Source: an uncultured Alphaproteobacteria bacterium
GTDB lineage: Bacteria > Pseudomonadota > Alphaproteobacteria > Rhodobacterales > Rhodobacteraceae
DNA length: 64,000 bases
Reading direction: 5' to 3'
Assembly (NCBI GenBank): GCA_942492375.1
Contig: CALOEL010000018.1
Span: 22,706-86,705 of the forward strand
A program made the position numbers and the translations under genes. The notes beneath the pieces were generated by a model that saw only the letters and a list, made by a program, of their open reading frames with translations, did not search any database and was not told the DNA's origin. This document shows, in pieces, positions 33,958 to 38,105 of the stretch. How positions within the stretch are numbered: the first letter of the stretch is position 1; the number at the start of each line of letters is the position of its first letter.

Positions 33958-34401
33958 ATGAAGGGGTTGAAGAAGAAGCGCAGGATTCAGGTCATCGCGG
34001 TCGCGGTGGTGGCGCTGGTGCTGTCCACGGCCTTGATCGGCTACGCGATGCGGGACGGAATCAACTTTTTCCGCGCGCCGGCGCAGGTCCTGGCGGAACC
34101 GCCGGGGCCGAACGAGGTGTTCCGGATCGGCGGGCTGGTCGAGGATGGCACGCTTGTGCGCGGGCAGGGCGAGACAATCACCTTCCGGGTGACCGACGGC
34201 GCCGCCTCGGTTCCGGTCAGTTATACCGGGGTGCTGCCGGATCTCTTCAAGGAGGGCGAGGGCATGGTCGGGACCGGACGGCTGGTCGACGGTGTCTTCG
34301 AGGCGTCGGAGATCCTGGCCAAGCATGACGAGACCTATATGCCGAAAGAGGTCATCGACGCGCTGAAGGAGCAGGGCGTCTATGTCGATCCGAACAGTTG
34401 A
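33958..34401 (+). CDS. ccmE: Cytochrome c maturation heme chaperone CcmE
   Basis: MKGLKKKRRIQVIAVAVVALVL...FRIGGLV...AKHDETYMPKEV (heme-binding His motif). 147 aa. Confidence 0.9.
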   Translation: MKGLKKKRRIQVIAVAVVALVLSTALIGYAMRDGINFFRAPAQVLAEPPGPNEVFRIGGLVEDGTLVRGQGETITFRVTDGAASVPVSYTGVLPDLFKEGEGMVGTGRLVDGVFEASEILAKHDETYMPKEVIDALKEQGVYVDPNS

Positions 34402-34409
34402 AGGGCGGT

Positions 34410-34496
34410 GACGCGCGTTCCGCGCGTCGCTGATTTCAGGGCGCGTCCTGCGGACGCGACGATGCCTCCGGCGGGGATATTTGCCAGACAATGAAG
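34410..34496 (+). repeat. Structured intergenic repeat, copy A
   Basis: Hairpin GACGCGC-gttcc-GCGCGTC, hairpin GCGTCC-tgc-GGACGC, then the box GATGCCTCCGGCGGGGATATTTGCCAGACAATGAAG. The box matches copy B at 34 of 36 positions. Confidence 0.8.
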
Positions 34497-34555
34497 GACA
34501 GGCGGCCTGCGCGCGGTGGCTTGCGGGCGGGTTAACCAATTCGACGCAGCCTTGG

Positions 34556-34569
34556 GGTGAATTTTCACC
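34556..34569 (+). promoter_or_regulatory. Perfect 14-bp palindrome immediately upstream of the muramidase gene
   Basis: GGTGAATTTTCACC, 17 nt before ATG 34586. Confidence 0.35.
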
Positions 34570-34585
34570 AGCCTGGCGGATGTCC

Positions 34586-35197
34586 ATGAAGACTGTCGAT
34601 GCGATTGCCGATGAAATCCTGGCCCGCGAGGGCGGCTATGTTGACGATCCGGACGATCCGGGCGGCGCGACCAATCACGGCGTGACGATCGGCACGCTGC
34701 GGCGGCTGCGCATGGACCTGACCGGCGACGGCCGTGTCGATGCCGCCGACGTGGCGGCTTTGTCCCGCGACCAGGCAAAGGCGATCCTGATCCGGGATTA
34801 TTTCGACCGGCCGCGAATCGCGGAACTGCCGGAGCCGCTACAGGCGTCGGTTTTCGACATGTATGTGAATGCCGGCGCCAACGCGGTGGAGATCCTGCAG
34901 CGGCTTCTGCGCGACATGGGACAGGCGATCGCCGTGGACGGCATCATCGGGCCGCGCACGATCGCGGCGGCGGCGCTGGCGCAGGCGGCGGCGCCGGGCC
35001 ATCTGGCGGATGCCTACGGGATCGCGCGGCGCAATTACTATTACGCGCTGGCCGACCGGCGTCCGGCCAGCCGCAAATATGCCCGCCGCCGCGATGGCGG
35101 CAAGGGCGGCTGGATCCTGCGCGCCGAGACCTTCATGTCGCGCCGCTATCATCTGACCGAGGCCGAACATGCGCGGCGGGTGGCGGCATGGGGCTGA
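34586..35197 (+). CDS. Glycoside hydrolase family 108 N-acetylmuramidase with PG_binding_3 domain (holin-associated endolysin)
   Basis: MKTVDAIADEILAREGGYVDDPDDPGGATNHGVT (GH108 catalytic motif) and ...VDGIIGPRTIAAA (peptidoglycan-binding). Overlaps the holin start by 10 nt. Confidence 0.8.
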   Translation: MKTVDAIADEILAREGGYVDDPDDPGGATNHGVTIGTLRRLRMDLTGDGRVDAADVAALSRDQAKAILIRDYFDRPRIAELPEPLQASVFDMYVNAGANAVEILQRLLRDMGQAIAVDGIIGPRTIAAAALAQAAAPGHLADAYGIARRNYYYALADRRPASRKYARRRDGGKGGWILRAETFMSRRYHLTEAEHARRVAAWG

Positions 35198-35721
35198 TCG
35201 AGGGGATCGTGACGCTGCTGTTCGGCGGCGGTCGCAACGCGCTGCGGGAGACGCTGGAGGTCTTCCGCGGCAATGCCGAGGCCGGCGAGGTACGAGACAC
35301 CGCCTACCGTTCGGCGGCGCTGGCGCAATTGTCGGCGGAATTCGCGGTGGAGCGGAAGGGCTGGTTCGACCGGACGGTGGATGCGGTCAACCGGCTGCCA
35401 CGCCCGGCTTTGGCGCTGGGGACACTGGGCCTGTTCGTCAGCGCGATGGCCGATCCGATCTGGTTCGCGGCGCGGATGCAGGGCATCGCGCTGGTTCCCG
35501 AGCCGCTCTGGTGGCTGCTGGGCGGGATCGTTTCATTCTATTTCGGGGCGCGGCACCAGGCGAAGGGGCACGACTTCCAACGCTCGATCGCGCTGACACT
35601 GGCGCGGGCGGCCGAGGTCTCTGACCGGCTGGGCGCGCTGGAGGCGCTGGGTGGGCGCGCGCGCGACGCGCTGTCGGGCAATGCCGCCCTGGCGGACTGG
35701 AGGGCGTCCGATGACGGATAG
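35188..35721 (+). CDS. 3TM-type holin (GTA_holin_3TM-like)
   Basis: 177-aa ORF with an N-terminal hydrophobic segment MGLIEGIVTLLFGG and TM spans ALALGTLGLFVSAMADPIWF and PLWWLLGGIVSFYFG. Architecture and pairing with the GH108 enzyme match those of the Rhodobacter GTA lysis genes. Confidence 0.7.
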   Translation: MGLIEGIVTLLFGGGRNALRETLEVFRGNAEAGEVRDTAYRSAALAQLSAEFAVERKGWFDRTVDAVNRLPRPALALGTLGLFVSAMADPIWFAARMQGIALVPEPLWWLLGGIVSFYFGARHQAKGHDFQRSIALTLARAAEVSDRLGALEALGGRARDALSGNAALADWRASDDG

Positions 35722-35890
35722 CCTCTTTCTGTCGCTGCTGACCGAGAACGGACCCTGGGTGCTACTGGTCTTCTACCTTCTCTACCGTGACTTCCAGAAG
35801 GATCAGGCCACTCGCGACCTGCTGAACAAGAACACGTCGGTCCTGACCGAACTTGCGGTTCTGATCCGCGAGCGGCTGCCGCGCAACTGA
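35711..35890 (+). CDS. Hypothetical 59-aa single-pass membrane peptide, translationally coupled to the holin
   Basis: ATG 35711 overlaps the holin stop by 11 nt. MTDSLFLSLLTENGPWVLLVFYLLYRDFQKDQATRDLLNKNTSVLTELAVLIRERLPRN. High GC3. Confidence 0.55.
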   Translation: MTDSLFLSLLTENGPWVLLVFYLLYRDFQKDQATRDLLNKNTSVLTELAVLIRERLPRN

Positions 35891-35904
35891 TGGGAGCATG
35901 ATGC

Positions 35905-36066
35905 ATGCCAAGCAAGCTGACCGAAGCGCAGGAACGCAACCGTCGGGCCGCGGAGGATCTGGACCAGGCACTCAAGGACTGCCTGGCCGCTATCCGGGGT
36001 CGGCCGGAAGCTGTCGTCGAAGGGCGGCTTCGGGTGATCGCCGGCGGGCGGGCTGCGCGCGATTGA
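35905..36066 (+). CDS. Hypothetical 53-aa soluble helical peptide (below the ORF-track length cutoff)
   Basis: My own translation: MPSKLTEAQERNRRAAEDLDQALKDCLAAIRGRPEAVVEGRLRVIAGGRAARD. GGGAG 8 nt upstream. Its GC3 is much higher than that of the overlapping 75-aa track ORF at 35898-36125. Confidence 0.35.
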   Translation: MPSKLTEAQERNRRAAEDLDQALKDCLAAIRGRPEAVVEGRLRVIAGGRAARD

Positions 36067-36134
36067 CGGCGCTTCCACCGAAGTGTGACAGCTTGTCTAT
36101 TGGCGCGGCCGCACGAACAGACTAGTGTGCCGCC

Positions 36135-38105
36135 ATGTTGGTTGAACTTGGACATTTCGCGCTGATCCTGGCCTTCTGCGTCGCCATCGTGCAGGCGCTT
36201 GTCCCAATGGCGGGAGCCGCGTCGGGACGCCGCGCCTGGATGGCTGTCGGGGAACCAGCCGCGGTCACGCAGGTTGTTCTGATCGGCTTCGCTTTCGCTG
36301 TGCTTACGCATGCCTTCGTGACCTCGGATTTTTCCTTGCGGCTGGTCGTCGAAAACTCGCATACCGACAAGCCGATGCTCTACAAGGTCACCGGGGTCTG
36401 GGGAAACCACGAGGGCTCGATGCTGCTCTGGGTCCTGATCCTGGCGCTGTTCGGCGCCTCGGCGGCGGTCTTTGGCGGCAACCTGCCCGATAGCCTGCGG
36501 GCACGGGTGCTGGCGGTACAGGGCGCGATCGGCGCGGCCTTTCTTGCGTTCATCCTGTTCACCTCGAATCCCTTCCTGCGGCTGGCCCGGCCGCCGATGA
36601 ACGGCGATGACCTCAATCCGCTTTTGCAGGATCCCGGCCTGGCGTTTCATCCACCGTTTCTCTACCTCGGCTATGTCGGGCTTTCGATGTCGTTCAGTTT
36701 CGCCGTAGCGGCGCTGATCGAAGGCCGGGTCGATGCCGCCTGGGCGCGCTGGGTCAGGCCCTGGACGCTGGCGGCCTGGATGTTCCTGACCGTCGGGATC
36801 GCGCTGGGATCATGGTGGGCCTATTACGAGCTTGGCTGGGGCGGGTTCTGGTTCTGGGATCCTGTGGAGAATGCGAGCTTCATGCCCTGGCTGCTCGCCG
36901 CGGCCCTGCTTCATTCCGCGATCGTGGTCGAGAAGCGCGAGTCGCTGAAGGCCTGGACGATATTGCTCGCGATCCTCGCGTTCGGGTTCTCGCTGATCGG
37001 GACGTTCATCGTGCGGTCCGGTGTGCTGACATCGGTTCACGCCTTCGCCAATGATCCCGAGCGCGGGGTGTTCATTCTGATCATCCTCGGCGTCTTCATG
37101 GGAGGCGCGCTGACGCTTTACGCGTTGCGGGCGGGGACAATGGAGGCGAAGGGTGTTTTCGCCCTGGCGAGCCGGGAAACCGCGCTGGTGCTGAACAACA
37201 TCCTACTTGCCGTCGCGGCCTTCGTCGTGTTCGTCGGTACGCTCTGGCCGCTTGGTGCTGAGCTTTTGCTGGGGCGCAAGCTGAGCGTCGGCGCGCCGTT
37301 CTTCGACGCAGCCTTCACGCCGTTTATGGTCGCGCTGGCGGTGATCCTGCCTGTCGGCGCGATCCTGCCATGGAAGCGGGCGCGAATCGAACGGGCGGCA
37401 CGGCCTCTCGTGCCGGCACTTGTGCTGGCCATCGCGTTGGGCGGCCTTGTCTTCGCCATGCAGACCGGTCGGTCCGCCCTGGGCCCGGTCGGCGCGGCGC
37501 TGGCGGTCTGGTTGGTCGCTGGATCGGTGACAGATCTGTGGCTGCGCGGCGGACGGGGCGATCCGGTGCAGAAAGCTCGCCGCATCTCGCGCCTGCCACG
37601 CGCCGATTGGGGCAAGTTCCTGGCCCATTCGGGGCTTGGGATCACGATCTTCGGTATCGCGGCGATCACTGCCTGGCAGGTCGAGGATATCCGTGTGGCC
37701 GAGGTCGGAGAGACGTTCGAAGTGGCGGGGTACCAGATCGCGCTGAACGGGATTACCGAGGCCAGGGTGGACAACTACATCACCACGACGGCGGATATGT
37801 CGGTCTTTCGGGATGGCGCGGAAGTGGCGCGGCTTTATCCGGAAAAGCGGGTCTACCCGGTGGCCCAGATGCCGACAACCGAGGCCGCGATCGCAAATGG
37901 CGTGTTGCGCGACATCTACCTGGTGATCGGCGATCCGCAAGATGGCGGCGGCTGGGCGGTGCGGACCCATATCAAGCCCTTCGCGAACTGGATCTGGGCG
38001 GGCGCGATCATCATGGCGATGGGTGGCGTGTTCAGTCTGACGGACCGCCGATACCGGGTGGCAGCGGGCGCGCGGCGTCGCCGGGCGCCGGTGCCTGCCG
38101 AATGA
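36135..38105 (+). CDS. ccmF: Cytochrome c-type biogenesis heme lyase CcmF
   Basis: [14 protein letters not shown]...[15 protein letters not shown]...[20 protein letters not shown] (WWD-type motif). 656 aa. Confidence 0.95.

Follow-up and report, generated by a model that had tools for sequence, protein, structure and literature searches.

The window, a 64,000-nucleotide stretch of contig CALOEL010000018.1 (GenBank assembly GCA_942492375.1; positions 22,706 to 86,705 of the forward strand), derives from a sediment metagenome and belongs to an uncultured member of the Rhodobacteraceae. Between its cytochrome c maturation genes ccmE and ccmF we identified a compact lysis cassette. We read this cassette, inserted between ccmE and ccmF, as the lysis operon of a gene transfer agent (GTA) of the RcGTA type. 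Its four genes are those of a GH108 endolysin and a three-transmembrane (3TM) holin and two small genes, here called orfA and orfB. With moderate confidence we suggest that orfA is a co-holin and orfB its cytoplasmic partner, so that lysis in some marine Rhodobacterales probably relies on a holin of two parts.

All four genes were on the plus strand. The endolysin gene (34481..35197; PF05838, E 6e-27; PG_binding_3 domain, PF09374, E 1.5e-22; match to the endolysin family phrog_315) and the start of the holin gene (35188..35721; GTA_holin_3TM, PF11351, E 4e-27, 95.6 bits; the rcc00556 family of RcGTA) overlapped by 10 nt, and the end of the holin gene and the start of orfA by 11 nt. The orfA gene (35711..35890) started with ATG and encoded 59 amino acids (aa). 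A GGAGG ribosome-binding site for orfA (35698..35702) lies within the holin gene, near its 3′ end, and is spaced 8 nt from the ATG. Behind orfA came a gap of 14 nt, carrying the GGGAG Shine-Dalgarno site (35892..35896) of orfB, again 8 nt before an ATG, and orfB itself (35905..36066) encoded 53 aa. An earlier note, made from the letters of the window alone, had proposed these two reading frames as small proteins coupled to the holin. Their coordinates, starts and lengths were confirmed, and the overlap of holin stop and orfA start was found in essentially all loci that carry orfA. To judge from this overlap, orfA is translationally coupled to the 3TM holin. The true start of the endolysin is likely to be the ATG at 34580 or 34586, as the alignments of its relatives began only at residue 28-36. 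Its sequence possessed neither an export signal nor a signal-anchor-release (SAR) segment, and a hole-forming holin would thus be needed.

The orfA frame is a real gene. Frame conservation and purifying selection downstream of 3TM holins, for which the earlier note had proposed to look, were both found. In a panel of 200 other genera of the same family, represented by one genome each, a stop-free tblastn match to orfA was recovered from 21 genera, with 52-75% identity and a single match per genome. It lay directly after the holin, between ccmE and ccmF, in 20 of the 21, and its start overlapped or abutted the holin stop. A scan with one genome per species detected relatives in at least 169 species. 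The best 80, which were listed, all came from Rhodobacterales/Paracoccaceae or from unclassified metagenome-assembled genomes (MAGs), and 76 of these loci had the order endolysin-holin-orfA. The closest relative among the matches listed was from a Brevirhabdus MAG (90% identity). The median pairwise ratio of nonsynonymous to synonymous substitution rates (dN/dS) was 0.22, a value to be read together with the saturation of the pairwise dS, and differences at the three codon positions amounted to 0.33/0.18/0.56. GC content by codon position was 0.63/0.33/0.81. A longer, 79-aa form with a GTG start was rejected on conservation. The two genes had been described as unannotated, which is correct for the window; in public Paracoccaceae genomes many homologues are already called as "hypothetical protein", for example those of orfA in Marinosulfonomonas, Aliiroseovarius, Palleronia and Tropicimonas and those of orfB in Halocynthiibacter, Pacificibacter and Celeribacter.

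The orfA product has a 13-residue acidic N-terminus (with D3 and E12), followed by GPWVLLVFYLLY, then R26 and a polar helical tail. The orfA alignment contained 14 invariant positions (G14, P15, W16, V20, F21, L23, L24, R26, D27, K30, R35, N41, E47 and R55). AlphaFold2 predicted helices at residues 2-13 and 16-55 (overall predicted local distance difference test score, pLDDT, 82.7; about 90 for the second helix), and the tail was amphipathic, with a hydrophobic moment of up to 0.41 around residues 31-48. The distribution of charges predicts an N-out/C-in orientation. The window's orfA had no significant match in Pfam, PHROGs or NCBIfam, none by tblastn to 50,697 phage records, and the IMG/VR pattern scan with the orfA profile detected no relatives. 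Among 1.84 billion representatives, a profile search recovered no more than 25 clusters, of which the few distant ones lay on short contigs. In one metagenomic protein (P0186, 200 aa), the last two thirds of the holin sequence continue in frame into orfA. Invariant orfA residues are altered in it (W16 to R, F21 to V), which makes a frameshift or poor contig quality a likelier source than a natural fusion.

The comparison of orfA with BhlA/UviB-type peptides, which the earlier note had made, passed a profile-profile test with controls. We aligned the 32 orfA-family members with 25 sequences collected as relatives of SPbeta YomB/BhlA, the reference having been taken from an annotated phage record (92 bits on PF10960). 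The hhalign probability was 93.7% (E 1.9e-7, score 38.5), and the alignment, 63 columns long, spanned both proteins from end to end and brought their G-P motifs into register. As controls, the template in reverse reached a score of 15.2, and 40 column shuffles that preserved the order of transmembrane (TM) segment and tail scored 14.1±2.7 (maximum 19.9); these shuffles control for composition, which can inflate profile matches of short membrane peptides, and leave convergence possible. Scanned one by one, 17 of the 32 family members gave sub-threshold matches to PF10960 (best E 4.8e-4), the sole family to recur. A language-model search with orfA found BhlA/UviB and YvrJ clusters at 0.87-0.89. 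Two distant matches to the orfA profile led to the same group, P0205 matching the "holin" phrog_4898 (E 1.9e-4) and P0198 the BhlA-type phrog_2429 (E 0.017). YvrJ (PF12841) was represented by weak leads (0.88 in the language-model search; E 0.045 over 18 residues for P0205), and XhlA (PF10779) was not matched by orfA in the Pfam scans.

BhlA/TpeE peptides have a net-negative N-terminus of 13-14 aa, a T-Q-G motif, and a very short (about 14 aa), aromatic-rich TM helix flanked by Lys/Arg, with the pattern P-F-A-x-L-F-x-W/Y-L-L-; a K/R-x-N-x-E-R-E motif and a C-terminal amphipathic helix follow (PMC9527704). The family is membrane-active, has been described as holins and occurs mainly in Firmicutes (PMC9527704). 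BhlA, UviB and TpeE (PF10960, TCDB 1.E.27; for example SPbeta YomB/BhlA) resemble orfA in their length (59-70 aa), in an acidic N-terminus of 13-14 aa that ends in G-P, in a short aromatic membrane helix (P-[FW]-[AV]-x-L-x-x-[WY]-L-L) that leads through a basic residue into an amphipathic helix, and in a gene position adjoining the endolysin and a second holin. The N-terminus of the orfA family measured 12-15 aa and had a net charge of about -1.5 (means of 0.41 K/R and 1.91 D/E over the 32 members). From the G-P, the uncharged stretch was exactly 12 residues long in all 32 and was followed by Arg, unlike BhlA, where it is 14. In the window this short, aromatic-rich region reads P-W-V-L-L-V-F-Y-L-L-Y, with R26 next. 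Unlike BhlA, orfA belongs to a Gram-negative, alphaproteobacterial host and to a GTA cassette, and is followed by orfB and usually by a third gene, orfC, neither of which has a BhlB counterpart. The most distant full-length match to the orfA profile, P0198 (67 aa; L063/L064:4001-4204), was located directly after a 1552-aa Laminin_G_3 protein on metagenome contigs of 27-40 kb. This is a putative phage setting, with the look of a tail fibre followed by lysis genes, and the following gene (288 aa) gave no endolysin match.

A real gene is also present at orfB. Direct tblastn detected matches in the three nearest genera only. When the gap after orfA was read locus by locus, nearly all loci were found to hold an open reading frame (ORF) of 40-52 aa with the same core motif, RN..AA..LD.A[VL][KR][ED].L, and a profile search recovered 74 proteins. 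Within the window's clade the dN/dS ratio was 0.10-0.35. For the 28-residue core, compared over 18 loci, it was 0.38, with positional differences of 0.47/0.35/0.65. The earlier note had preferred this frame, for its GGGAG site and its strong GC bias at third codon positions (GC3), over a 75-aa ORF that overlaps it in another frame (35898-36125, plus strand). The choice was sound: GC by codon position was 0.83/0.54/0.75 in orfB, a GC3 of 0.75 against 0.54 in the 75-aa ORF, and the latter most likely owes its existence to the GC richness of the sequence. AlphaFold2 predicted a single amphipathic helix bearing the family motif (residues 2-32, pLDDT about 90) and a disordered tail. Pfam, PHROG and NCBIfam gave no match to orfB, and a language-model search returned chance-level matches only (maximum 0.77); none of them offered a lead to its function.

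The orfB gene occurred in two forms. In the common short form (40-52 aa), an additional amphipathic stretch stands at the N-terminus and the protein stops directly behind the core motif. That stretch is missing from the window's form, which carries instead a conserved, clade-specific tail, P-E-x-V-V-E-G-R-[FL]-R-V-I-x-G-G-R. Most orfA loci possessed in addition orfC, a gene of about 140 aa with roughly five hydrophobic segments that overlaps the orfB stop (for example L005:1811-2230; also L006, L008-L014 and L016-L020). It had conserved T-P-L-A-L-G-M and G-W-W-W motifs and no Pfam or NCBIfam match. The multi-TM antiholin LysA of phage P2 offers a loose analogy, by description only: like it, orfC belongs to a lysis cassette and encodes a small polytopic membrane protein, here of about 140 aa. 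We found orfC in 15 of the 21 orfA genera, once on a cut contig, and otherwise nowhere outside the locus; a single weak match with three stop codons came from a genome in which orfA was not found. Among the best 80 species loci, 46 had the order endolysin-holin-A-B-C-ccmF and about 18 were of the window type, with long orfB and no orfC. A search of the window's genome for orfC gave no match, and the 68 nt between orfB and ccmF leave no room for it. What is particular to the window is a reduced, two-gene form, in which its clade has dropped orfC and remodelled orfB with the conserved tail. In two genera an ORF of 56-59 aa with about two hydrophobic segments was observed in the place of orfC (L015:1799-1969; L021, oriented, 1806-1985) and may be a remnant or a replacement.

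The position behind the GTA holin was not reserved for orfA. The PF11351 holin was present in 172 of the 200 sampled genera, and in 21 genera we detected an XhlA-like gene of 68-70 aa (PF10779; 35.3 bits against a cut-off of 34.7), directly behind the holin in at least 15 (L035:2021-2227, L052:2063-2269, L029, L037 and L055 are instances). Its start overlapped the holin stop, and it never shared a locus with orfA. In a tree of endolysin and holin, the orfA cassette L007 was sister to the XhlA cassette L037 (support 96/81) and the labels clustered; the backbone was too poorly resolved for gains of orfA to be counted. In B. subtilis, PBSX lysis requires XhlA, which acts together with the holin XhlB, and BhlA is paired with BhlB in Bacillus prophages (PMC5589764). 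Like orfA, XhlA of PBSX is small, crosses the membrane once and is coupled to a holin, and XhlA-like genes occupy the exact orfA slot in those at least 15 other genera. The layout of XhlA is the opposite one, shared by the XhlA-like genes: the coiled coil lies at the N-terminus and the TM segment at the C-terminus. Given the alternation of orfA with the XhlA-like gene and the pairing of both kinds of protein with holins in Bacillus, the slot behind the GTA holin is an exchangeable site for small holin-partner genes. In some genera a gene of 132-138 aa with an N-terminal TM segment followed the XhlA-like gene (L052:2262-2660; L037, oriented, 2172-2588). Pfam gave no match to this gene, which could be another accessory of lysis.

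The signal-less endolysin, the production of orfA together with the holin and the resemblance to BhlA make a co-holin, or holin partner, the most economical reading of orfA. Because holin stop and orfA start overlap, orfA would be made in step with the 3TM holin. It would insert N-out/C-in, with a very short aromatic helix in the membrane and an amphipathic helix in the cytoplasm, and could serve as a second membrane-permeabilising component that helps or tunes hole formation. By resemblance to BhlA-type peptides, the too-short aromatic helix would destabilise the membrane. The resulting hole would let the endolysin reach the cell wall. The orfB product, a small cytoplasmic single-helix protein, may pair with the cytoplasmic helix of orfA, acting either as its partner or as a brake, and in most relatives orfC, a third, multi-TM protein, would complete the module. 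The combination of orfA and 3TM holin may be likened to BhlA with BhlB in SPbeta and to XhlA with XhlB in PBSX.

Several observations weigh against a BhlA-like co-holin that depends on the GTA holin. The window's own orfA did not match PF10960 even at E<=10, and none of the listed orfA-family members reached the Pfam gathering cut-off of 22.6 bits. Two BhlA motifs were not kept. In place of T-Q-G before the membrane helix, the family has A-E-x-G, or more generally [AT]-[ED]-x before the invariant G14-P15 (T-E-N in the window). In place of K/R-x-N-x-E-R-E after it, the consensus is R-D-x-Q-K-D-Q-A-T-R (R-D-x-Q-K-[DE]-x-A-x-R in looser form), and hhalign placed a gap here. With these two motifs not kept and no match at the cut-off, we regard orfA as a distant BhlA-like relative outside the current family boundary, and not as a member in the Pfam sense. 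In addition, in at least 14 of the 30 best-scoring PF11351 loci, which were inspected, the holin ran straight into ccmF with no extra gene. Finally, three loci (L109, L114 from Roseitranquillus sediminis, and L124) possessed intact orfA-B-C between ccmE and ccmF and no endolysin or holin upstream, with dN/dS of 0.02-0.32 for orfA and 0.12-0.39 for orfB, indicating purifying selection. The genome G061 (99% complete), equated with L114 solely via an identical orfB product, had no PF11351 or GH108 match anywhere. As orfA-B-C are kept under purifying selection without an adjacent holin, the module is not strictly dependent on the 3TM holin. In L109, an upstream ORF (1483-2202) resembles a transposase by eye only.

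These loci bear most directly on a different explanation, in which orfA-orfB(-orfC) form a self-contained BhlA-type permeabilisation or non-lytic export unit that shares the GTA lysis operon but can operate independently of the lysis genes. In it a cytoplasmic inhibitor and a membrane partner would accompany the holin-like peptide, and the unit might act as sole holin, serve in secretion or work like a toxin-immunity pair. We consider this explanation rather unlikely. It fits the Roseitranquillus clade, which keeps A-B-C (dN/dS 0.02-0.39) after losing the adjacent endolysin and holin, and G061, which retains two GTA_TIM genes yet no holin or endolysin match. It also has precedents, as TpeE has been linked to the release of the toxin TpeL, by a proposed non-lytic transport, and UviB to that of the bacteriocin Bcn5, by a mode left unresolved (PMC9527704). 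However, orfA was found only in the ccmE-ccmF slot, it stands behind the holin in 76 of the 80 top species loci, no cargo gene was evident, and orfC has been dropped in the window's clade. A stronger form, in which the module is a self-sufficient Gram-negative BhlA-type holin system with orfB as its brake and has replaced the 3TM holin outright in the Roseitranquillus clade, seems to us improbable to a similar degree; GTA or other cargo may then be released by a BhlA/TpeE-like route and not by classical holin-endolysin lysis.

Alternatively, orfA with orfB could bind the 3TM holin in the membrane as an antiholin or timer, not lethal itself, and delay triggering until GTA particles mature. Small membrane proteins adjoining holins are often antiholins, orfA is strictly coupled in translation to the holin, and its optional presence across genera is what would be expected of a modulator. 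We nevertheless judge an antiholin unlikely, because the BhlA-family relatives are themselves membrane-active and described as holins (PMC9527704), and because orfA-B-C still show purifying selection at loci lacking an adjacent 3TM holin. The same three species weaken the regulator role that the earlier note had also named. A Gram-negative lysis cassette would be expected to need an outer-membrane step, and a literature search on gene transfer agents and spanins found no RcGTA spanin or accessory lysis gene reported. Spanin genes usually lie after the holin, where orfA as a mini i-spanin and orfB as an o-spanin or disruptin-like peptide would fit. The earlier note had already argued against a spanin pair from the missing lipobox, and the sequence features agreed, making this a very improbable reading. 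No hydrophobic segment, signal peptide, lipobox or N-terminal Cys was found in orfB, its sole Cys (position 26) lying inside the predicted helix behind a polar N-terminus; its net charge is only +1.5, it is predicted to be a soluble helix with a disordered tail, and the aligned short variants also lacked a lipobox. The orfA tail of 33 residues (about 5 nm if helical) is too short to cross the periplasm and is predicted to be cytoplasmic, whereas an i-spanin has an N-in TM segment and a long periplasmic coiled coil. It is similarly very doubtful that orfA and orfB serve the flanking ccmE and ccmF, for example as a CcmD-like accessory. Their position between the two genes, and the three species with orfA-B-C there and no lysis genes, would agree with such a role; against it, the window's genome encodes its own CcmD elsewhere (PF04995, E 8e-10), orfA was found in only 21 of the 200 genera although ccmE and ccmF flank the cassette in most inspected loci, its start overlaps the holin stop, and its sequence kinship is to BhlA and not to Ccm proteins. 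Spanin, disruptin-like and CcmD readings were accordingly rejected on sequence features.

The endolysin and holin genes rcc00555 and rcc00556 of the RcGTA of Rhodobacter capsulatus belong to the same families and have the same ccmE and heme-lyase flanks. Hynes et al. 2016 (PMC5026251) reported rcc00555-rcc00556 with the same ccmE flank and with heme lyase as the downstream flank in 12 of 21 genomes. The RcGTA cassette has been described in the literature as two genes, to which the window adds orfA and orfB; our literature search found no paper describing orfA, orfB or extra genes in a GTA lysis locus. With orfA behind the holin in about 10% of the sampled genera, and an XhlA-like gene directly behind it in at least 15 further genera (about 8%), the survey suggests that a sizeable minority of marine Rhodobacterales have one to three extra small genes chained to the GTA holin, the first of which is akin to holin partners known until now chiefly from Firmicute prophages. 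If the co-holin reading is true, GTA lysis in these lineages would employ a holin of two parts together with small partner proteins of its own. This would offer a handle on lysis timing in a domesticated virus and extend the BhlA family to Gram-negative hosts.

The gene order of the surrounding region (32.9-38.1 kb) was argC, ccmE, endolysin, 3TM holin, orfA, orfB and ccmF. The upstream flank, ccmE (cycJ; 33958..34401, plus strand), matched PF03100 (CcmE, E 8e-31), and the downstream flank, the heme lyase gene ccmF (36135..38105, plus strand), matched PF16327 (E 2.5e-114) and PF01578. A GTA_TIM gene was also present in the window's genome. A consensus scan of 34300-36300 found no sigma-70-type promoter; two weak terminator-like sites were detected in the same interval, both on the minus strand.

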